Positions 3 to 12,361 of a DNA stretch of 13,092 nucleotides are shown piece after piece. The notes under the pieces were generated by a model, which saw only the letters and a program-made list of their open reading frames with translations, was not told the DNA's origin and searched no databases. The number at the start of each line of letters is the position of its first letter. Within the stretch, counting starts at the first letter, position 1. The stretch is from Nitrosopumilaceae archaeon. GTDB lineage: Archaea; Thermoproteota; Nitrososphaeria; Nitrososphaerales; Nitrosopumilaceae. The stretch lies in assembly GCA_052389415.1 (NCBI GenBank), contig JBQTHX010000084.1, forward strand, positions 1 to 13,092, in the 5' to 3' direction. A program made the position numbers and the translations under genes.

Positions 3-1328
3 AAAGAATTAGAAGTAATAATAAAACGTGTTGTACGTGAAAAAGCAAAACAAAATTTATTTTTGATAAATCAAAGTGATTTGAAGAATTTTGTAGATTC
101 TGAAATTGACCAAAATATGGAGGACAAATATGAAATCTTGTCCGATCCAACAAAAAAGATCACTTCAGCTGAAGGGATTGAAGGTTTTGGCACTTTGTTT
201 GCCAGTAGATACTCGAAACTTTTAAAGATAATATCTCAGAGGGGCCAAGCACAAAAACTGGTAAAAATTGATGTAGTAAAGACAGGCAAGCCAAAAGACG
301 AAGTCTTCGTTGGTGGACTACTTATGGATAGGAAGATAGAACGAGATGTTACAAAATTGATAATAGATGATCCTAGCGGTTCTATTGAAACCCTAGTTTT
401 TAACAAAGAAATCCAACCAATAGCAAATTCACTTTTGATAGACCAATTTGTTATGCAAAGCATTACTAGTGGAAAAAATGGTGGTTTTATAACAAAAGAG
501 ATTCTTATTCCGGACCTCCCTGATCATGTGACAAATCGTTCAAAGACAGAAACCTATGCTGTCTTGATATCTGACTTGCATGTAGGTAGCAAGTATTTTA
601 TGGAAAAAGAGTTTGGAGATTTTGTTTCTTGGCTTGCTAGTCCTGATCCAATTGCAAAGAAAATTCGTTTTGTCCTAGTTTGTGGAGATGTAGTGGATGG
701 GGTTGGAATCTTTCCAAATCAAGACAAGGAGCTTCTTTTGGTGGACATTGGAGATCAGATGGTAAAAGCTGCTCAGTTACTTGATAAGATTCCAAAGCAT
801 ATCAAGGTCTTTATCATTCCAGGAAACCATGATCCTGGTAGGCGAGCCCTTCCACAACCTGCTATACCTGAAAAACACAATATGGATTTATGGAATAGAG
901 AGAATTTTTTCATGCTTGGTAATCCATCGGTAGTTTCGTTAAATGGTGTAAAGGTCTTGATGTTTCATGGGCAGAGTTTGGATGATGTTGTTGGAACCAC
1001 ACCAGGTCTTAGTTATTCCCAACCAGCAAAAGCAATGCGTATGCTGTTAAAAGCCAGACATCTAAGTCCGATTTATGGTAAAAGAACACCCATTGCTCCT
1101 GAAACGGAAGACATGATGGTAATTGATGAGATCCCTGACATCTTTCACTCTGGGCATATCCATGTTGTTGACCTAGACAAGTACAAGGGTACGTTAATAG
1201 TAAATTCCGGTGCTTGGCAAACTCAGACTGCATACCAAGCTAGTGTTGGAATAACACCAACTCCAGGGATTGCAGTTATTGTAAATCTAACCAATCTTAA
1301 GGTCTTTACCAAAAGTTTCGTAGATTAG
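3..1328 (+). CDS. polB: DNA polymerase D small subunit DP1 (3'-5' proofreading exonuclease), 5' partial
   Basis: Mre11-like phosphoesterase motifs SDLH, GDVVDG, GNHD, FHG and SGHIH, preceded by an OB-fold-like segment. The frame is open from position 3 (KELEVIIKRVVREKAKQNLFL...), so the true start lies upstream of the window and TTG at 63 is not the start. Confidence 0.95.
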   Translation, partial: KELEVIIKRVVREKAKQNLFLINQSDLKNFVDSEIDQNMEDKYEILSDPTKKITSAEGIEGFGTLFASRYSKLLKIISQRGQAQKLVKIDVVKTGKPKDEVFVGGLLMDRKIERDVTKLIIDDPSGSIETLVFNKEIQPIANSLLIDQFVMQSITSGKNGGFITKEILIPDLPDHVTNRSKTETYAVLISDLHVGSKYFMEKEFGDFVSWLASPDPIAKKIRFVLVCGDVVDGVGIFPNQDKELLLVDIGDQMVKAAQLLDKIPKHIKVFIIPGNHDPGRRALPQPAIPEKHNMDLWNRENFFMLGNPSVVSLNGVKVLMFHGQSLDDVVGTTPGLSYSQPAKAMRMLLKARHLSPIYGKRTPIAPETEDMMVIDEIPDIFHSGHIHVVDLDKYKGTLIVNSGAWQTQTAYQASVGITPTPGIAVIVNLTNLKVFTKSFVD

Positions 1329-2537
1329 CTACAAAACATCTGAAAAGATAAGATCGTCTTTGAGTGTTTTTTTTATAACATCAGGATGAATTGTCAATTT
1401 GTATTTTTTTGTCCTGCCGTGCATGCCTTGGTGAACTATCTTACCAGTGATAAGACCTGAGAGTTCAATATCACCGAGAATTTGAGTGACTCTCCGTTGT
1501 GTTATCTCTTTTTGACGTATCTTCTTACACAATCCTTTGTAGGCCTGATATATCTCGCCTGTGGAGGATCCGTTTGCTCTCATTACTGCGATAATTAGTA
1601 ATTTTTCATGTAATGGGTAAGAGTTTAGTGCTGTTGTTTCCTTATCCTCTTCCATCTTTTGAGAAGCTCGTCTGATATGGTCTTCTTTGACAGTTTTTGA
1701 TTGCTCTCTTTCAGCAAGCTCTCCTGCAACACGCAAGAGATCTATTGCTCTTCTTGCATCACCATGTTCTTGACCAGCCATTGCTGCACAGAGATTTAGT
1801 GCGGCAGTATCGACCGCGCCTTTGATAAAGGCTGTTTTGATTCTATCTAAGAGAATTTCCTTGATCTGCTCTACTGTATAATTTGTAAAGACAATCTCCT
1901 CTTCGCTAAGACTGCTCAAAACTCGGGGATCAAGTCTTTCTTTGAAGGTCAGATCGTTTGAAATTCCAATAAGTGTAAGGGAGCCTGACTTTAACCGTTC
2001 ATTTGCTCTCGTGAGGTTGTACAAAACATCCTTACCCGTTTTTGATATTAGTTCTGCCAAGTAATCAATCTCATCTATTACAAAAACTGCATTTGTAGTG
2101 TTTTTTTGAATAACTTCTAACAATTTGTTAAATACACTGCTAATTGATAATCCGGTTGCAGGAAGTTCTTTTTGGTTAAGGCCTAATTCCCTCCCCAAAC
2201 TTACTAGTAATCCATACAATGTTGTTTCGTCTTTGGCGTTTGTATAAGCCAGTTTAATCGGAAAATCACTCTTTTCAACACGTTTGTGTATTTTTGATAA
2301 GACAGTTTTTACTACCAATGTTTTGCCCGTACCGGGTTTGCCGTAAATAAGAAGATTTGATGGTCGTGATTTTTTTAAGATAGGTAGTAAAGCCTGGGTA
2401 ACTTTGGCAAGTTCGTTGTCCCTGTGTAAAATTATCTCTGGGATGAAGGTAAAATGCAATACATCACGTTTTTTTAAAATAGAAAGTCCGCTTGCTGCGT
2501 CATCAAGCAATTTATCTACGGGATCATGGTTGGTCAT
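1329..2537 (-). CDS. cdc6: Orc1/Cdc6 replication initiator (AAA+ ATPase with C-terminal winged helix)
   Basis: Walker A GKPGTGKT, Walker B VIDEID, GDARRA motif and a C-terminal wHTH. ATG at 2537 (MTNHDPVD) is preferred over GTG at 2546 because it is preceded by an SD-like AGGTG. Confidence 0.96.
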   Translation of the reverse strand: MTNHDPVDKLLDDAASGLSILKKRDVLHFTFIPEIILHRDNELAKVTQALLPILKKSRPSNLLIYGKPGTGKTLVVKTVLSKIHKRVEKSDFPIKLAYTNAKDETTLYGLLVSLGRELGLNQKELPATGLSISSVFNKLLEVIQKNTTNAVFVIDEIDYLAELISKTGKDVLYNLTRANERLKSGSLTLIGISNDLTFKERLDPRVLSSLSEEEIVFTNYTVEQIKEILLDRIKTAFIKGAVDTAALNLCAAMAGQEHGDARRAIDLLRVAGELAEREQSKTVKEDHIRRASQKMEEDKETTALNSYPLHEKLLIIAVMRANGSSTGEIYQAYKGLCKKIRQKEITQRRVTQILGDIELSGLITGKIVHQGMHGRTKKYKLTIHPDVIKKTLKDDLIFSDVL

Positions 2538-2540
2538 GGT

Positions 2541-2562
2541 ACACACCTATATTTCCTCTGTC
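2541..2562 (-). promoter_or_regulatory. ORB-like box a, overlapping the cdc6 leader and SD
   Basis: Minus strand reads GACAGAGGAAATATAGGTGTGT, matching the ORB pattern CAG(A/T)GGAAA-N4-G-rich. It ends 3 nt before the cdc6 ATG. Confidence 0.65.
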
Positions 2563-2610
2563 ATCATAATGAATCTACTTAGAATAAACTAATTAGAATA
2601 GAATCACTAA

Positions 2611-2670
2611 ACCAAATTTAGTATATCATTAATTATTTTTATTTTTATTTCAAAAAAATTTTTTAATAAA
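2611..2670. other. Extreme AT-rich tract (candidate DNA unwinding element)
   Basis: Only 5 G/C in 60 bp, and a single C in 2628-2670. Includes an A7T6 run at 2652-2664 and lies between ORB-like boxes a and b. Confidence 0.6.
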
Positions 2671-2671
2671 G

Positions 2672-2697
2672 CTAGAGTGGAAAACATGGTGTGTGGG
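2672..2697 (+). promoter_or_regulatory. ORB-like box b
   Basis: CTAGAGTGGAAAACATGGTGTGTGGG. Shares GAGTGGAAA with boxes c and d, and GGAAA-N4-GGTGTGT with box a. It is inverted relative to a, c and d. Confidence 0.72.
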
Positions 2698-2763
2698 CTC
2701 GTTTAAACTTAGTTAACTATTTGTTAAGTTCTTGTTAAGGTAAGACCAAAAAAAGCCAGATTT

Positions 2764-2793
2764 GACCCCTATATTTCCACTCCAGACGTGAAT
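2764..2793 (-). repeat. ORB box c (30-bp direct repeat, copy 1)
   Basis: Plus strand GACCCCTATATTTCCACTCCAGACGTGAAT; minus strand ...CTGGAGTGGAAATATAGGGGTC, with ORB core and G-string. Confidence 0.88.
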
Positions 2794-2825
2794 ATCAACC
2801 TTAACATTGTTAAAATGGTAGGAGG

Positions 2826-2855
2826 GACCCCCATATTTCCACTCCAGACGTGAAT
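2826..2855 (-). repeat. ORB box d (30-bp direct repeat, copy 2)
   Basis: Plus strand GACCCCCATATTTCCACTCCAGACGTGAAT. 29/30 identical to box c and starts 62 bp after it. Confidence 0.88.
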
Positions 2856-3006
2856 TATCTGTAAAGGGGATTAAAAGATGGATAGTGTTTGTTAAGGTGG
2901 TAATAATTTCTAGGCATGAGCCAGGCAGTGAATGTTAACAAACTCACTAGTTAACAAATCTTCTTTGATCTGTTCAAGTGTTAATGTGTTAACCGGATCG
3001 ATCACA

Positions 3007-3408
3007 ATGGCCAAAAAAAGAATCAAGATAGACCTAGAAGACACAGACGGAGCCAAGTACAACTTTAGTGTAGAAGGAAACGTAACTAGGGAAAAGATGT
3101 TAAAAATATTTGAAGTAATGGATTTGATAAACATAGAAGAACCTCAAGAAGGACCAACCTTAGATTCAGTAGGGTCTAAGATTTGGAATATTGTAGACAA
3201 ACACTTTCCAATGGGTAAGTTCACCTCATCTGAGGTGCTTGAGAAATATGAGGATGATTATGGGGAACCTATCAAACTAAGCATAATCTCAACATATTTG
3301 TCCAGATTTGCCTCTAAAGGCAGAGTGGAAAGAACAAAACAGGGAAGAGAGTGGGCCTATCAGGTAGTAAAGATCTCTCAAAGACAACCCAACTCCCTAA
3401 CAAAATAA
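3007..3408 (+). CDS. Hypothetical protein with small N-terminal domain and C-terminal winged helix-turn-helix (133 aa)
   Basis: C-terminus FTSSEVLEKY...LSIISTYLSRFASKGRVERTKQGREWAY has the helix-helix-wing pattern of wHTH proteins. ATG 3007 (MAKKRIK) is preferred because the upstream extension from 2932 runs through the origin motif cluster. Confidence 0.8.
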   Translation: MAKKRIKIDLEDTDGAKYNFSVEGNVTREKMLKIFEVMDLINIEEPQEGPTLDSVGSKIWNIVDKHFPMGKFTSSEVLEKYEDDYGEPIKLSIISTYLSRFASKGRVERTKQGREWAYQVVKISQRQPNSLTK

Positions 3409-3570
3409 TCACATTATCACTACTTTCTTTATTATGAGATGGTCTTGGTTCATTATGATTTTGACATAATCTCCTTTTTGAAGTTCAAGAAACTTTCTAA
3501 ACTGCTTTGGGATTGAGATTGTACCACCAGAGGTAATCTTTACCAACTCTTCATTCTGCTGAACAGTCAT
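3409..3570 (-). CDS. AbrB/MazE/SpoVT-family DNA-binding protein (53 aa; not in the ORF track)
   Basis: Manual translation gives MTVQQNEELVKITSGGTISIPKQFRKFLELQKGDYVKIIMNQDHLIIKKVVIM*, matching the family pattern K(I/V)xxxGxIxIPKxxRxxLxLxxGDxV. ATG at 3570, TGA at 3409-3411, and an AT-rich TATA-like segment about 25-30 nt upstream. Confidence 0.9.
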   Translation of the reverse strand: MTVQQNEELVKITSGGTISIPKQFRKFLELQKGDYVKIIMNQDHLIIKKVVIM

Positions 3571-3671
3571 ATTATTAAATAATTAGTTTATGTATTAAAT
3601 GTTTTATTATTTTATAAAATTCATAAATATACCATAAATTGATGAAATAGTGGATTTATTGGTATTGATTA

Positions 3672-4223
3672 TTATTGTGGAACTGGTTTTTCCAAACCAA
3701 GTTTGGCCTTACCCTTATCAGTAATGTTATAAGTAAATGGTTTGGTCCCCATATCTCTTTCAACTAAACCTTCCTCGAAAAGCTTCTTCATCATCCGTGA
3801 CGTATGCTCTCTGGTCCTACCTATTGTGATTTGTATATCACGTGATGTCATAGGTTTTTCTGTGATAAGCTTCAGAACATAATCTGTAGCACTACCAAAA
3901 TTCATGTTACGCATACGTTCTTTAGGTGGCTCTTCCTGAACCTGGCTCTCCTCTAACTGGACCTTAGTTGGTTTTTTATCATATTTTATTGGAACCTCCA
4001 ACATGCCTGTATCTTGGTCTAACTCTAGAGAATCCATTCGTATTTTCATATCAATTAACTGATTCTCATAATAATGGAGGCGGTCAGTATAGGATTTTAT
4101 TTGTTGAGATTCAGTCTTAATGAGTGGTTTGATCTTGTTGTATATCACTATGGCGAACAAACCACCAAGAAACGCGAGAGTGATTCCAATTAACACTTCT
4201 GGATCTGGAATCTCTACTAACAT
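3672..4223 (-). CDS. Membrane-anchored winged-helix protein (N-terminal TM helix, coiled-coil/linker, C-terminal MarR/ArsR-like wHTH; 183 aa)
   Basis: Hydrophobic VLIGITLAFLGGLFAIVIY followed by basic NKIK, then a heptad-like YTDRLHYYENQLIDMKIRMDSLEL and a Q/E/P-rich linker. The C-terminal VLKLITEKPMTSRDIQITIGRTREHTSRMMKKLFEEGLVER...FTYNITDKG is wHTH-like. ATG 4223 preferred over 4256. Confidence 0.82.
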   Translation of the reverse strand: MLVEIPDPEVLIGITLAFLGGLFAIVIYNKIKPLIKTESQQIKSYTDRLHYYENQLIDMKIRMDSLELDQDTGMLEVPIKYDKKPTKVQLEESQVQEEPPKERMRNMNFGSATDYVLKLITEKPMTSRDIQITIGRTREHTSRMMKKLFEEGLVERDMGTKPFTYNITDKGKAKLGLEKPVPQ

Positions 4224-4468
4224 CACAAAAACTCTGCAAAGTTCGTGATTTATCATGATCGAGCAACTTTATTTCACATAATACACATCAATCACAACAC
4301 ATTAAATATCATCGAGTTTGGTGACTATCAATTTAGATTGCTGTAATATCACAATCTACAGGCACGTTTTACCAATGTATCAATCACAGACATGATTTCA
4401 TTTTCTTTTTCAGGGAAGACATCACTGTTTTGTATCACAGATACTTGGTCCGAAAGCCTGCTTATCAC
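3826..4468. repeat. Dispersed ATCAC(A)/(T)GTGAT motif cluster
   Basis: 14 exact copies at 3826, 3837, 3842, 3862, 4144, 4180, 4222, 4245, 4291, 4348, 4383, 4421, 4434 and 4464. Both orientations occur, and the palindrome ATCACGTGAT sits at 3837-3846. Confidence 0.65.
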
Positions 4469-4711
4469 ATCAAGATCATCAGGGATGACTACTCCCAATC
4501 CCCTGAGGAGGATGATTGAATAAAACAATCCCAGAAGTTTATCCCTAGATTGAATAACCTGCCTGTAATAGGCCCCTTTTGTTATAGCAAAATCAATTTT
4601 CTGGAGGTTCAACTGATTTAAAATAATTTCAATTTGTCTTTCTGTAAATAATGATTTTTTTATAATTTGCTTGATAATATTATTAAAAATTGGATTTAGA
4701 GATTCGGCCAT
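4349..4711 (-). CDS. Hypothetical protein with HTH-like segment (120 aa)
   Basis: FTERQIEII...ITKGAYYRQVIQSRDKL resembles LuxR/sigma-region-4/Tfx-like HTH patterns (LTxRQxEIL...SxxAxxxxxxxAxxKL). The domain call is by eye only. Confidence 0.7.
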   Translation of the reverse strand: MAESLNPIFNNIIKQIIKKSLFTERQIEIILNQLNLQKIDFAITKGAYYRQVIQSRDKLLGLFYSIILLRGLGVVIPDDLDVISRLSDQVSVIQNSDVFPEKENEIMSVIDTLVKRACRL

Positions 4712-4744
4712 AGCTATACAATTCTGTATATCTTATCAGTGTTA

Positions 4745-4775: not shown

Positions 4776-5522
4776 ATGAAAAATGTGGAGAGTTATCTGA
4801 GGACGACTCTCAAGAAAAAGAAAGCTTTATTGTTTGTTCTCATAGATTCGGAAATATCTGAAATAAAATCAACTGTAAAGCTTGCAAAAGAAGTTGAGAA
4901 GATTGGCGCAGCAGCAATCCTAGTTGGAGGGTCATCTGCCACTGATCAGCTTGGCATGTCTGAGGTTGTTAGAAATTTAAAAAAATCAATCAAGATTCCA
5001 ATAATACTATTCCCTGGTAATATCACAGGTGTTGTCCCAAACGCTGACGCCATCTTATTTAGCTCTCTTTTGAATTCAGAGAATCCATATTACATCTCTC
5101 AGGCTCAAGCACTTGGAGCTCCAAACGTTCTAAAATTCGGGTTGGAACCTCTCCCTACTGCCTACATTGTGATAGGTGAAGGAACCTCGGCTTGGTTTGT
5201 AGGCTCAGTGAGAAGCATACCTTTTGACAAATCAAACCTTGCCGCAATGTACGCCCTTTCAGCACAATTCCTTGGCATGAGGTTTGTATACCTTGAGGCA
5301 GGCTCTGGCGCTTCTTCTCACGTTAAACCAGAGATGATACGGGCTGTACGTAAGGTATTCAAAGGCTTTTTGATCGTCGGCGGTGGAATCCGAGGCTCTC
5401 ATGCGGCAGGCGAGATTGTAAAGGCAGGTGCTGATGCCATCGTGATAGGTACCCTTGCAGAAAGAGGCGGAAGTAAAGTCTTAAACGAAATTATCAAAAC
5501 CATACAGAGTGTAAAGAAGTAA
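4776..5522 (+). CDS. Geranylgeranylglyceryl phosphate synthase (PcrB/GGGPS family; archaeal ether lipid synthesis)
   Basis: Family motifs VLID, ILVGGS, IILFPG, ADAILFSSLLNS, YLEAGSGA, VGGGIR and GADAIVIGT; size fits a TIM barrel (248 aa). Confidence 0.93.
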   Translation: MKNVESYLRTTLKKKKALLFVLIDSEISEIKSTVKLAKEVEKIGAAAILVGGSSATDQLGMSEVVRNLKKSIKIPIILFPGNITGVVPNADAILFSSLLNSENPYYISQAQALGAPNVLKFGLEPLPTAYIVIGEGTSAWFVGSVRSIPFDKSNLAAMYALSAQFLGMRFVYLEAGSGASSHVKPEMIRAVRKVFKGFLIVGGGIRGSHAAGEIVKAGADAIVIGTLAERGGSKVLNEIIKTIQSVKK

Positions 5523-5523
5523 C

Positions 5524-8500
5524 ATGTCTGAGAATGTGGTGTTGCGTTTAAGTGATATTGCAATGCCCAAATATTATGTAGATTATTATACAAACATCTC
5601 AAATACCGTCTTTTTAATATTTGAAAAGTCGGCAGCAGCAAAATCTACCTTACATGACTCATCAGTAATGGTAGAACCAAAGATTGCATTTGATCTTGCA
5701 GACCGAGTCTCAAAAATGCATGAGATAGACGTGACTGAGCGACTTAGAACACTGATACAAACTACTACAAAAGAGCTAGCAGCTTTAACACTAGCTGAGG
5801 AAATTGCCCGAGGCAAATACATTGGTTCAGATTCATTAGAAGAGAAATTAGACATGGCAGTAAGGGTCGCCCTTGCTATCGTTACTGAAGGTGTTACCAT
5901 AGCTCCGTTGCAAGGAATCCATGAGGTAAAAATCAAGAAGAATAGGGATGGTTCGGAATACCTCTCAATCTCCTTTGCTGGACCAATAAGGTCAGCTGGA
6001 GGAACAGAAGCTGCATCTACAATGCTAATTGCAGATCATGTTAGAAAGATAGCTGGTTTACAAAAATTTCAGGCAAACTCGTTTGATGATGAGACTGGAA
6101 GGTTTGTCGAAGAATTGAGACTTTACGAGAGAGAAGCTGGCAACTTTCAATACCACGTTCCAGATGAGGACATTGTTTCTGTAATATCAAATCTCCCGGT
6201 AGAACTAGATGGCGTTGACACTGATCCTATAGAAATTGTTAGTCATAGGAACATGGCCAGAATTTCTACTGATAGGGTAAGAGGAGGAGCCTTAAGAGTA
6301 CTAAATGATGGTTTGATTGGCAAATCCAGAAAATTGCTAAAACTAATTGATTTGTATAATTTAGAGGGCTGGGGCTGGCTAAAAGACCTCAAAGGAGCAA
6401 TCCAGACTGGTGATGAGGATGCGGCAGCACATAGGATGAGAGAGGTTATAACTGGAAGATCTGTACTTTCGATGCCAAAAAAACTAGGGGGGTTTAGACT
6501 AAGATATGGTCGAGCTTGCAACACTGGTTTTTCATCGGTAGGAGTTCATCCTGTTGTAGCTGAAATTCTAGATCATACTATAGCTGTAGGCACACAAATC
6601 AAACTAGATACTCCTGGCAAGGCTTCAACCATTGCTTTTGTAGATTCGCTTGACACTCCAATTATCAGATTGGTAAATGGAAATGTTGTTAAGCTACAAA
6701 ACACGGCCCATGGAATCAGCCTAAAAGGACAGATTGAAAAAATACTCCACCTTGGTGATATCCTGATCAGCTATGGAGATTTTTTGGAAAATAACGCGGA
6801 ACTAATTCCGACTGGATATGTGGAAGAATATTGGGTAGCGGAATTGGAAGAAAAACTCAGGAGATACGAATCAGAAGATAATCAATTACAGAGTTTTCTT
6901 TCAAAAACTCCTACATTTGATGAGGCAATCAAACTCTCATTAGATTTTGATATTCCACTTCATCCTAACTATCTTTACTTTTGGGAACAGCTATCACACG
7001 ACGAATTTAAGAAAATACTAGACCCCCAAAGTGCAGATCCTGAATCAATAACCTACCAAAAAAGTAGTAAACCCATTCTAGAAAAGCTTGGGGTTCCTCA
7101 TGAAGTTTCTGGGGAATTCGTTTTACTAAAATCTACAGAAGCTAGGATTTTCTTTAATCTGTTATTTAGAAACCCAATCAATTTTGATGATCTCCTTACT
7201 GTGACACAAATGATCACACAAGCAACCAAAATAAGAATTCATGAAAAATTTTCTACAGCAATTGGAGTCAGGGTTGGAAGACCAGAAAAAGCAGCTGAAA
7301 GGAAAATGAAACCACCAGTGCACACATTATTTCCTGTGGGAAATAAGGGAGGAGCATCACGTGACTTGATCAAAGCTTCCAAACAAGCCGACTTTTATTG
7401 TAATATTAGTAATAGGATATGTAAAAACTGTAAAGAACCCTCTATTGGAATAGCTTGCCAGAAATGCGGTTCCAAGACATCCATAATATTCATCTGTCCA
7501 AATTGCAGAGCAGAGCTTGATTCTGATTTTTGTGCTAAATGCAAGAGAAAAGGGAGTTTGCATGGCTACAAAGCATTTCCTCTCAAGGAGCAGCTTCTTC
7601 TATCTCAAGAAACTACTGCAATACGAGTTCAAGAGCCGTTTAAAGGAGTACGTGAACTCATTAACCAAGAAAGAATTGCAGAACCTCTTGAAAAGGGAAT
7701 CATTAGGCAAAGTCTTGGTCTTAGCGTATTCAAGGATGGTACAATTAGATTTGACGCAACAAATGCACCACTAACTCACTTTAAACCAAGATGGATTGGG
7801 ACCTCCCTTGAAAAACTTGCCAAGTTTGGATACACTCATGATATTGATGGTAAGCCACTCATTTCCTTGGATCAGACAATTGAGCTCTTAATGCAAGATG
7901 TAATCATTCCACATGATTGCGGAGAATATCTGGTCAAGACATCACAATATATTGATAAAGAATTGGAAAAGCTCTACGGTCACCCTGCCTTTTACAAAAT
8001 CAAAAACAACGATGATCTAGTTGGACACCTGATAATTGGTTTAGCTCCCCATACATCAGTTGGAATAGTAGGGCGAATAATAGGGTATACCAACACGCAT
8101 GTTTGTTATGGTACTCCGGTTTGGCATTCTGCAAAAAGACGTGATGCTGACGGTGATGCTGACTCTATCATGCTTTTGATGGATAGTCTTCTCAACTTTT
8201 CAAGACAGTTTCTTTCTGACAGAATAGGAGGATTAATGGATGCACCGCTATTGGTACAGCCCATAGTCATTCCACAAGAAGTTCAAAGACAGGCTCATAA
8301 TTTTGAAGTAGTAAAAGAATTACCACTCTCATTTTTTGAAGCCACCCTTGCAAAAGAAAAAGCAAGTGAGGTAAAAGGAGTTGAAACTCTAAAATCAAGA
8401 CTAGAAACCGAAAAACAGTTTTACGGACATTATTTCACACATAACACGTCAACTCTTACTACATCCAAATCGAGAAGCGCATATTCTACATTAGGTTCAC

Positions 8501-8895
8501 TTTTGGAAAAACTCGACATGCAAATTAGGACGGCTAATATCATAGATGCTATCGATCCAAATGAAGTAGTATCTATGGTAATGACAACTCATCTCTTGCC
8601 AGATATCATGGGTAATCTTAGAGCATATTCTGGACAATCATTTAGGTGTACTACATGTGGTGCAAGCTACAGAAGAATTCCATTATCACAAATTTGTAAT
8701 GAGTGTGGCAGCAAACTCATACAAACCATGACAAGACCTTCTGTGAAAAAATATCTAAAACTTGCAAAAAGGCTGCTTGGCAAATATCAAGTCGATCCAT
8801 ATTTGAGAGGACGAGTCCTTGGTTTGTTAGATGAACTTGAACTAGTTTTTGGAAAAGAGGAAAGCGACCAAGCTCTTCTTACTGATTATGCTTAA
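5524..8895 (+). CDS. polC: DNA polymerase D large subunit DP2
   Basis: Motifs TEGVTIAPLQGI, AGPIRSAGGT, GGFRLRYGR, RVGRPEKA, FKDGTIRFD, catalytic KRRDADGDAD and GGLMDAPL, multiple CxxC zinc sites, and a C-terminal PIP-like QALLTDY. No intein evident. Confidence 0.97.
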   Translation: MSENVVLRLSDIAMPKYYVDYYTNISNTVFLIFEKSAAAKSTLHDSSVMVEPKIAFDLADRVSKMHEIDVTERLRTLIQTTTKELAALTLAEEIARGKYIGSDSLEEKLDMAVRVALAIVTEGVTIAPLQGIHEVKIKKNRDGSEYLSISFAGPIRSAGGTEAASTMLIADHVRKIAGLQKFQANSFDDETGRFVEELRLYEREAGNFQYHVPDEDIVSVISNLPVELDGVDTDPIEIVSHRNMARISTDRVRGGALRVLNDGLIGKSRKLLKLIDLYNLEGWGWLKDLKGAIQTGDEDAAAHRMREVITGRSVLSMPKKLGGFRLRYGRACNTGFSSVGVHPVVAEILDHTIAVGTQIKLDTPGKASTIAFVDSLDTPIIRLVNGNVVKLQNTAHGISLKGQIEKILHLGDILISYGDFLENNAELIPTGYVEEYWVAELEEKLRRYESEDNQLQSFLSKTPTFDEAIKLSLDFDIPLHPNYLYFWEQLSHDEFKKILDPQSADPESITYQKSSKPILEKLGVPHEVSGEFVLLKSTEARIFFNLLFRNPINFDDLLTVTQMITQATKIRIHEKFSTAIGVRVGRPEKAAERKMKPPVHTLFPVGNKGGASRDLIKASKQADFYCNISNRICKNCKEPSIGIACQKCGSKTSIIFICPNCRAELDSDFCAKCKRKGSLHGYKAFPLKEQLLLSQETTAIRVQEPFKGVRELINQERIAEPLEKGIIRQSLGLSVFKDGTIRFDATNAPLTHFKPRWIGTSLEKLAKFGYTHDIDGKPLISLDQTIELLMQDVIIPHDCGEYLVKTSQYIDKELEKLYGHPAFYKIKNNDDLVGHLIIGLAPHTSVGIVGRIIGYTNTHVCYGTPVWHSAKRRDADGDADSIMLLMDSLLNFSRQFLSDRIGGLMDAPLLVQPIVIPQEVQRQAHNFEVVKELPLSFFEATLAKEKASEVKGVETLKSRLETEKQFYGHYFTHNTSTLTTSKSRSAYSTLGSLLEKLDMQIRTANIIDAIDPNEVVSMVMTTHLLPDIMGNLRAYSGQSFRCTTCGASYRRIPLSQICNECGSKLIQTMTRPSVKKYLKLAKRLLGKYQVDPYLRGRVLGLLDELELVFGKEESDQALLTDYA

Positions 8896-12019: not shown

Positions 12020-12076
12020 AAAGAAATTTTCAAATTTACCTACAAGATTTATTTGCGAATCATTCATACAAAATTC

Positions 12077-12361
12077 ATGCAAAAAAGCGGTATTATTCTT
12101 ACTGGAATAAAATTTGCATATCTTATAGTCTTCTTTGCACTACTCTCAGGAGTTTTTTATCTTATAATTGAACAACAAGCAGAAGCTTTTTCTGAGGTTG
12201 TGTATGGTGTGCTGATTCTTTTTGTTGGACTGGGGGGAGCCTTGTGTTTGTATAAAGCAAGTACCTCAGAGAAGAGACGAAAAATCTACATGATTGCAGG
12301 ATTTGCAATTCTTACTGTTGCACTCTTTCTAGTTTTCTCTATATCTGGAAGATTGATCTAG
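12077..12361 (+). CDS. Small hypothetical membrane protein (about 3 TM helices, 94 aa)
   Basis: Three hydrophobic stretches: FAYLIVFFALLSGVFYLII, VVYGVLILFVGLGGALCLY and IYMIAGFAILTVALFLVFSI. ATG 12077 is preferred over TTG 12053. Confidence 0.75.
   Translation: MQKSGIILTGIKFAYLIVFFALLSGVFYLIIEQQAEAFSEVVYGVLILFVGLGGALCLYKASTSEKRRKIYMIAGFAILTVALFLVFSISGRLI

Follow-up and report, generated by a model that had tools for sequence, protein, structure and literature searches.

We analysed a 13,092-nt stretch of DNA, referred to here as the window, from contig JBQTHX010000084.1 of the Nitrosopumilaceae archaeon assembly GCA_052389415.1; all coordinates are window-based. The subject of this study is a group of four small genes, P1 to P4, that adjoins a candidate replication origin beside the gene for the Orc1/Cdc6 initiator (cdc6), together with two iterated DNA motifs and a palindrome in the same region. 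We describe as observed the genes with their folds and domains, the motif arrays and how far they are conserved, the selection acting on synonymous sites and the synteny, and weigh a tentative model of an origin-linked control module against its alternatives. Genomes (G), fetched loci (L) and families (f) are numbered, G000 being the 1.43 Mb source genome. The class-level set of 41 sources combines a first set of 21 loci, including the window, with 20 further loci from other families and orders; a wider-phylum set comprises 201 sampled genomes, with 20 loci fetched around P1.

The 460-bp spacer between cdc6 and P1 holds the anatomy of the origin:

1329-2546, minus strand: Orc1/Cdc6 initiator gene (TIGR02928 365 bits; Cdc6_lid and Cdc6_C domains)
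2543-2559, plus strand: element resembling an origin recognition box (ORB), overlapping the cdc6 start; inverted partner of 2672-2697 (repeat family D2; kept in orthologous spacers)
2595-2670, no strand: AT-rich stretch, likely unwinding element, read from the sequence (GC 0.31-0.32 in 300-bp windows spanning 2401-2850)
2672-2697, minus strand: inverted ORB-like element (AGAGTGGAAA...GGTGTGTGGG; inverted repeats I13 and I14; kept in orthologous spacers)
2711-2993, no strand: array of TGTTAA(C) iterons, set among the ORBs and reaching into the P1 promoter (14 GTTAA matches)
2764-2793, plus strand: ORB 1 (direct repeat D3, 30 nt, 97% identical to ORB 2)
2826-2855, plus strand: ORB 2 (direct repeat D3, 30 nt)

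With its ORBs, an AT-rich stretch bracketed by the inverted ORB-like pair (2543-2559 and 2672-2697) and an adjoining cdc6 gene, the spacer has the sequence characteristics of an Orc1/Cdc6-dependent archaeal origin. Excerpts of a review report a single origin mapped in Nitrosopumilus maritimus, and in the reviews, as excerpted, in vivo origin mapping is restricted to this species (PMC4010727). Beside the AT-rich stretch, at 2597-2625, lies AGAATAGAATCACTAAACCAAATTTAGT, which contains one ATCAC, is near-identical in the closest loci (L031-L038) and may be part of the cdc6 promoter.

When all strand-collapsed 5-mers were scanned, GTTAA was the most clustered word in the window (Poisson P values, uncorrected), with 14 of its 38 matches on both strands falling in 2712-2989. 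Across the G000 genome the 14 matches per 300 bp found here compare with six in the next best cluster. Each of 19 orthologous cdc6-P1 spacers contains 8-16 GTTAA at positions that are constant relative to the ORBs, and the iterons occupy four stations: two copies in tandem upstream of ORB 1, a palindrome (TTAACA-n-TGTTAA) in the interval before ORB 2, a single site past ORB 2, and four to five sites in the final 75 bp ahead of the P1 ATG.

The iteron word itself changes between lineages. TGTGAA(T) replaces TGTTAA at equivalent stations in L053, L064, L065 (f19), L067 (f25) and L068 (f10), and in the wider phylum the Cdc6-adjacent loci L076, L079, L085 and L091 have an excess of TGTGAA, 5-7 copies, ahead of P1; L087, also from the wider phylum, carries GTTAAC upstream of P1. 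In G200, six copies of TGTGAA stand among ORB-like repeats at a cdc6-adjacent origin, with P1 ~500 kb distant. In four other genomes with multiple cdc6 genes (L092-L094, L096), the DNA upstream of cdc6 was either coding or uninformative. Approximately 600 nt upstream of P1 in L081 and L082, ORB-like CCACTGG repeats are interleaved with a third iteron, TTATACA; no cdc6 lies within ~6 kb, three cdc6 paralogues occur elsewhere in the genome, and the repeat region may be an origin without an adjoining initiator gene. On this distribution, the cdc6 origin of G200 included, we regard the iterons as an origin feature whose sequence drifts between lineages. Two further short sequences were noted in the spacers. 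GGATCGATCAC occupies 2995-3006, immediately ahead of the P1 ATG, and recurs there in roughly half of the first-set loci; in the distant loci L039, L042, L045 and L046, whose spacers are longer, the portion nearest cdc6 holds several GGATC/GATC copies. Together GGATCGATCAC and the GGATC copies may represent a fourth motif.

Downstream of the spacer, the small genes and the elements that overlie them are arranged as follows:

3007-3408, plus strand: P1, 133 aa, an N-terminal beta-hairpin and helix followed by a C-terminal winged helix (predicted model, mean predicted local distance difference test score (pLDDT) 78)
3409-3570, minus strand: P2, AbrB/SpoVT-type small protein (PF04014 and TIGR01439 above cut-offs)
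3672-4223, minus strand: P3, transmembrane (TM) helix, coiled coil, linker and C-terminal winged helix-turn-helix (start revised to ATG 4223)
3826-4468, no strand: array of ATCAC/(T)GTGAT sites spread across P3, its promoter and the P4 3' end (14 matches)
4349-4711, minus strand: P4, 120 aa, five-helix protein assigned to no family (predicted model, pLDDT 87.6)
4715-4730, no strand: palindrome TATACA-N4-TGTATA, abutting the P4 start codon (single occurrence in the 1.43 Mb genome)

P1 is annotated as "hypothetical protein" in the sources, and its start is taken as 3007 because the upstream ATG at 2932 is not conserved. The predicted model has a three-helix bundle and a beta wing, that is, a winged helix (residues 49-124), which resembles the Fur DNA-binding domain (VIA Z 11.2, rmsd 1.8, 70 aligned residues). 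The Pfam match to Penicillinase_R scores under its cut-off, and a Foldseek search of the PDB returned nothing at E ≤ 0.001, the rows being generic winged helices with a best E of 3.6e-3. Within the recognition helix (H91-103), T96, Y97, L98 and R100 are invariant and S95 nearly so. Residue 93, on the first turn of this helix, co-varies with the fourth base of the iteron: it is Thr in nine of ten TGTGAA loci, the exception being L085 (Ala), and Ile, Val, Leu, Met, Ala or Glu, never Thr, in every TGTTAA locus listed. In contrast, the putative recognition helix of P4 is highly variable among TGTTAA lineages. As residue 93 of P1 tracks the iteron type and the P4 helix varies within one type, P1 is the best candidate for the protein that reads the iterons.

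The second iterated motif, ATCAC, covers P3 and its surroundings. Fourteen of its 46 matches in the window fall in 3826-4468, which ranks it second among clustered words at 650 bp (Poisson 1.4e-7, uncorrected) and third at 300 bp. Genome-wide, the 14 matches per 650 bp found here are followed by clusters of 12 and 7 in G000. The cluster of 12, on C18, was rejected as a protein-repeat artefact in which GDxCD codons make the word; they belong to a secreted protein of 1044 aa with many thrombospondin-type Asp-rich repeats, encoded at 3135-6269 of L051 (G000:C18). The P3-P4 region contains 12-18 ATCAC/GTGAT in 19 of the 20 orthologous loci and 7 in L050, with a density of 1.5-3.1 per kb elsewhere in each locus. 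An unbiased 5-mer test of the same region placed ATCAC at the top in 19 of the 21 first-set loci and the overlapping word TCACA at the top in one more; among the second set, ATCAC was top in L053, L069 and L070 and listed in L058, L064 and L065. A scan for a pattern of three ATCAC in five complete genomes was supportive in three, with the P3-P4 locus accounting for 7 of 12 occurrences in G013, 4 of 16 in G011 and 4 of 10 in G020; the corresponding shares were 1 of 7 in G023 and 0 of 10 in G038, the latter unsupportive at the chosen spacing.

Most of the array is coding DNA, and we compared the observed ATCAC counts with synonymous shuffles in which the encoded protein and the codon usage of each gene are retained. 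The observed count for P3 was 141 against a shuffle mean of 49.3, and that for P4 was 87 against 48.0. The control genes gave 66 against 55.6 (Cdc6), 49 against 46.5 (SHMT), 30 against 20.6 (GGGPS) and 11 against 7.9 (P1). Judged by these counts, ATCAC sites in coding DNA are kept by selection on synonymous positions. Approximately 11 sites are conserved in position in at least 12 of 21 loci. Five are in the 3' end of P4, one of them spanning the P4 TGA stop; one lies directly upstream of the TATA-like GAAATAAAG of the P3 promoter, a second coincides with the likely start of transcription (ATGATAAATCAC) and a third with the P3 start codon (GTGATG), and three more lie within the winged-helix-coding part of P3. 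The orientation of the sites flips around the P3 promoter, with GTGAT in the sense of the gene upstream and ATCAC downstream, which favours a DNA-level over an RNA-level element. The site logo reads (T)GTGAT: position -1 is T in 53% of sites, compared with 32% outside the region.

The P3 protein, known in the sources by generic or automatic labels, probably starts at ATG 4223 and not at the longest-ORF (open reading frame) ATG 4256, because 4224-4256 carries stops or indels in relatives. Most called homologues are 182-184 aa long, fitting the later start, and 4224-4256 holds the conserved ATGATAAATCAC, which resembles a transcription-start element. The TM helix spans residues 10-28 (Kyte-Doolittle hydropathy (KD) 2.51) and is flanked by charges of -3 on its N-side and +3 on its C-side; as these follow the positive-inside rule, the C-terminus is predicted to be cytoplasmic. 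After the TM helix come a conserved coiled-coil segment, a variable linker and the winged helix, where the MarR-type domain HTH_27 scores 24.6 bits against a gathering score of 22.2 (residues 126-182 of the 194-aa reading). Within it, R138, E139, H140 and R143 of an R-E-H-x-x-R helix are invariant in 34 class sequences. While a single-sequence phmmer search of P3 against the PDB yielded nothing useful, a profile search gave Vfr (E 0.004) and CRP/CAP (E 0.06-0.08) as best matches, over the helix-turn-helix (HTH) only and with R-E-x-x-x-R in register. The Pfam domain HTH_Crp_2 scores below its cut-off (E 2.3e-4), reaching 26.6 bits in a distant orthologue. P3 thus carries the R-E-x-x-x-R recognition helix that marks the C-terminal HTH of CRP-FNR proteins, and no counterpart of their N-terminal beta-barrel was found (cNMP_binding, no match at E ≤ 1). 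In CRP the Arg-Glu-...-Arg residues contact the TGTGA half-site. Through this half-site and a short, borderline alignment, the (T)GTGAT array fits the CRP-like helix of P3, a correspondence we find suggestive. Co-folding of P3 (residues 35-183) with P4 gave a score of 0.00 and was uninformative for or against binding.

P4 is also annotated as "hypothetical protein". None of 22 family members has a Pfam family, and Foldseek found no PDB match at E ≤ 0.001. Residues 16-77 of the model bear a weak VIA likeness to LuxR and sigma region 4 HTH domains (EsrB Z 6.5, 8hno 5.6, sigma-28 5.1), and there is one Atlas lead (0.81). The palindrome abutting its start codon is a third motif class at the locus, beyond the two iterated words. 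In its strict form it occurs once per locus, no more than 150 nt from the P4 5' end, in 22 of 38 P4-bearing loci, with near-variants present in other loci. The simplest interpretation is that P4 regulates itself through it. One of its halves, TGTATA, recurs fused to an ATCAC site in TTGTATATCAC, which is present twice exactly (3831-3841 and 4138-4148).

P2 differs from the other three in its distribution. Its domain scores (PF04014 32.0 against a cut-off of 24.7; TIGR01439 39.6 against 28.3) identify an AbrB/SpoVT swapped-hairpin domain. There is no toxin gene next to it, its neighbours being P1 and P3 with no other adjoining ORF of at least 50 aa. P2 occurs in 17 of 41 sources and, by this distribution, is a lineage-specific, family-level addition to the locus. 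The first-pass annotation of the window had described a module of four DNA-binding proteins beside an ORB-containing origin, to be examined by structure prediction and Foldseek. The domains of P1, P2 and P3 agree with this description and the winged-helix fold of P1 emerged from its predicted model; the HTH-likeness of P4 is weak (Z 6.5), neither P1 nor P4 has a Foldseek match at E ≤ 0.001, and the conserved core is P1, P3 and P4, with P2 found in just 17 of 41 sources.

Gene order was tallied over the 41 sources using iterated hidden Markov models. Cdc6-P1-P3-P4, with oriC between Cdc6 and P1, is kept in 34 sources across the class. The remaining seven comprise three loci cut by record ends (L040, L052, L069), one that is rearranged yet adjacent (L063) and three exceptions (L057, L058, L066). 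All 20 fetched orthologous loci have identical gene order, except that P2 was undetected in the four most distant. A search for P3 found it in 36 of 41 relatives, and P4 is present in 38 of 41 sources. P1 occurs in 146 of 151 class genomes and 133 of 134 high-quality ones, a tally that includes the unpublished G139. In the wider phylum P1 was detected in 134 of the 201 genomes and P4, at E ≤ 1e-5, in 104, and both are missing from the same nine sampled families. Seven of the 20 wider-phylum loci read DP1-Cdc6-P1. Several points of the first-pass annotation are borne out by these data: the synteny around cdc6 holds across the class; GTTAA is enriched in oriC, as the top-clustered 5-mer of the window and the top cluster genome-wide; ATCAC is enriched over 3826-4468, again as the top genome cluster and with 12-18 matches in all but one of the 20 orthologous loci; and orthologous regions retain both motifs.

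Based on these observations we propose, with a probability of roughly 0.4, that the DNA-binding proteins P1, P3 and P4 and three classes of cis-element make up a conserved module linked to the single Orc1/Cdc6-dependent origin beside them. P1 would bind the TGTTAA(C) iterons, which flank and separate the ORBs and fill the P1 promoter, and from this placement we propose that it serves as an accessory origin factor and a self-repressor. P3 would sit in the membrane through its N-terminal TM helix as a coiled-coil dimer with a cytoplasmic C-terminus, its CRP-like helix (R-E-H-x-x-R) reading (T)GTGAT half-sites in the P3 promoter, the P3 coding sequence and the P4 3' end, 1-1.6 kb from the ORBs. 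By reading sites over its own gene, P3 could thereby combine autoregulation with a membrane hold on origin-proximal DNA. P4 would bind the unique palindrome at its own start and autoregulate. The supposition in the first-pass annotation that neighbouring proteins read the motifs, one each, gains indirect support from the match of the P3 helix to CRP/Vfr, set beside the TGTGAT array, and from the covariation of residue 93 of P1 with the fourth iteron base.

Several observations weigh against this proposal. No cdc6 lies within ~6 kb of P1 in 13 of the 20 wider-phylum loci, so linkage to cdc6 is not obligatory; the cdc6-less loci often still pair P1 with P3 (L072, L074, L077, L084) or with P4 (L078, L090), and since members of the trio adjoin without cdc6, P1-P3-P4 is a unit, for which the seat at oriC is usual in the class and not universal. 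Within the family the whole 13 kb region is syntenic, so synteny alone says little among close relatives. Family f21 (L059-L062) lacks the ATCAC cluster although its P3 helix is invariant, and the best cluster of f18 sits in the P4-GGGPS spacer. The sites show no CRP-like N6 pairing and no helical phasing and are mostly single half-sites; a coiled-coil P3 dimer with long linkers could accept unpaired half-sites. The likeness of P3 to CRP is borderline in E-value and extends over ~32 residues, with other winged-helix families its equal in Pfam. Finally, the covariation at residue 93 was counted regardless of phylogeny and has one exception (L085, Ala).

The principal alternative, which we consider possible if somewhat unlikely, is that P1, P3 and P4 are ordinary self-regulating transcription factors that happen to stand beside oriC, their motifs being local operators with no part in replication, anchoring or segregation. 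Every motif class does overlap a promoter or start: TGTTAA sites fill the final 75 bp ahead of the P1 ATG, ATCAC sites stand on either side of the TATA-like box and start of P3, and the palindrome abuts the P4 ATG. The occurrence of P1 alongside P3 or P4 away from cdc6, and the conservation of gene order over all 13 kb in the family, also suit this explanation. It accounts less readily for TGTTAA sites up to ~300 bp upstream of P1, around and between the ORBs and at conserved positions in all spacers examined, or for the TGTGAA iterons of the G200 cdc6 origin, from which P1 is ~500 kb away. L081 and L082, where ORB-like repeats and their own iteron lie upstream of P1 with cdc6 not nearby, likewise speak for an association with origins, and ~11 conserved sites over 640 bp of coding DNA far exceed the needs of a simple operator. 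The same distribution in G200, where iterons accompany oriC and not the P1 gene, can be taken in another direction, namely that Orc1/Cdc6 itself, through low-affinity or titrating sites, or an unlinked factor reads the iterons, that a protein encoded elsewhere reads ATCAC, and that P1, P3 and P4 act on other targets or are bystanders. According to excerpts of a review (PMC4010727), clustered initiator sites have been proposed to titrate Cdc6 in haloarchaea, and the GTGAAT iteron of f19 resembles part of the f19 ORB. However, TGTTAA is unlike the ORB of the source genome, the palindromic iteron forms (TGTTAACA, TTAACAnTGTTAA) suit a dimeric HTH protein, residue 93 of P1 tracks the iteron type, and the invariant R-E-x-x-x-R of P3 fits GTGA, going by the CRP half-site. 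We regard this explanation as quite unlikely.

It is very improbable, in our judgement, that the ATCAC excess is not a DNA-binding array but a by-product of protein or RNA constraint, such as Val-Ile dipeptides, codon bias or an mRNA element. Several sites do encode V-I or S-D in P4, conserved residues partly explain the positional conservation in coding DNA, and the P4 excess alone is modest (87 against 48) and non-significant in most single loci. Against this stand the 141 sites counted for P3, compared with 49.3 in shuffles that preserve amino acids and codons and with control ratios near 1, the conserved sites in the non-coding spacer and across the P4 stop codon, the orientation flip around the P3 promoter, which is unlike a single-stranded RNA motif, and the persistence of the enrichment at 35-46% protein identity in L049. 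A more far-reaching version of the origin-linked module can also be put forward, and we hold it to be unlikely: P3 would be a cis-acting origin-to-membrane tether, with iteron-bound P1 timing Orc1/Cdc6 and P4 setting the level of the pair, in an ancient layer of control. During transcription, the TM helix of P3 would insert into the membrane and the CRP-like winged helix would emerge last, next to about a dozen TGTGAT sites in its own gene; we propose that each round of expression could in this way fix the 1-2 kb nearest the origin to the membrane. By occupying the lineage-specific iterons between the ORBs, P1 would determine the moment at which Orc1/Cdc6 can fire, P4 would set the level of the pair, and the trio would constitute an ancient layer of replication, and perhaps segregation, control found in much of the phylum and not in the nine sampled families. 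If true, the P3 tether would be the first origin-anchoring device described in archaea.

The remainder of the window contains flanking genes in the following positions:

63-1328, plus strand: DP1
4776-5522, plus strand: GGGPS
5524-8895, plus strand: DP2

Downstream of DP2 are genes for SHMT, a thermosome, a small membrane protein and glutamine synthetase. The small membrane protein (12053-12361, 102 aa), between the thermosome and glutamine synthetase genes, has two TM helices and is conserved in the family; its sole match, DUF7475, is under its cut-off. No ParA domain was found in the scanned window ORFs, in keeping with the earlier statement that the window has no ParA ATPase, and the G000 genome gave a single partial AAA_31 match on a different contig. 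In one wider-phylum family, a ParA/MinD-type ATPase gene (L078, 6803-7510; AAA_31, E 1e-29) lies directly beside P4 and P1. In family f34, P1 is arranged head-to-head with the gene at L073 6507-7274 (PCNA) and the corresponding L075 6549-7316, and the main cdc6 origin, ~500 kb from P1, retains its TGTGAA iterons (L095).

Our literature search found no published description of the P1, P3 or P4 genes or of the motifs; it did not cover the N. maritimus origin-mapping paper (Pelve et al. 2013). The locus bears on how archaea time initiation beyond the binding of Orc1/Cdc6 and on how origins are placed or separated in lineages without an obvious ParA system. It presents a second class of origin repeat, whose changes from lineage to lineage run parallel to those in a neighbouring protein; a predicted membrane-anchored DNA-binding protein whose candidate sites are kept in coding DNA by synonymous selection; and three little-annotated protein families, two of them common across the phylum (P1 in 134 and P4 in 104 of the 201 sampled genomes). 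The predictions are testable in cultured ammonia oxidisers.

Among known systems, the origin itself is closest to archaeal oriC1-type Orc1/Cdc6 origins, with which it shares a cdc6-adjacent spacer and ORBs around an AT-rich stretch. It differs from those described in the excerpted review (PMC4010727) by a second conserved, lineage-variable class of iterons between the ORBs. The partition systems SegAB and pNOB8 AspA-ParB-ParA likewise consist of small site-specific DNA-binding proteins with arrays of sites; unlike these, the locus has no ParA-type ATPase among the scanned window ORFs. AspA appears among the winged-helix rows of the P1 Foldseek search (E 0.019), a likeness no greater than that of any winged helix.

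The best counterparts of the P3 HTH among solved structures are Vfr and CRP of the CRP-FNR family, aligned with R-E-x-x-x-R in register, and the (T)GTGAT sites of the P3 locus match the CRP half-site TGTGA. Unlike CRP-FNR proteins, P3 has a TM helix, coiled coil and linker in place of a cyclic-nucleotide-binding domain, and its array consists of single half-sites rather than N6 palindromes, with E-values that are borderline. A membrane-anchored HTH regulator is known in archaea in ArnR, a one-component regulator of the archaellum with an N-terminal HTH and C-terminal TM helices. By architecture alone, P3 can also be likened to the bacterial origin-to-membrane anchors RocS and RicO, which reportedly combine a DNA-binding domain with a membrane-binding element. 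RocS and RicO have an N-terminal DNA-binding domain and a C-terminal amphipathic helix; in P3 the order is reversed, with the TM helix at the N-terminus and the winged helix at the C-terminus. P3 is, moreover, archaeal, and its candidate sites are packed over its own gene. RocS and RicO reportedly show that an origin anchor can be built from a DNA-binding domain, a membrane-attachment element and sites near the origin; the P3 locus has a comparable predicted architecture, a putative DNA-binding domain with a predicted TM helix, and candidate sites proximal to the origin.

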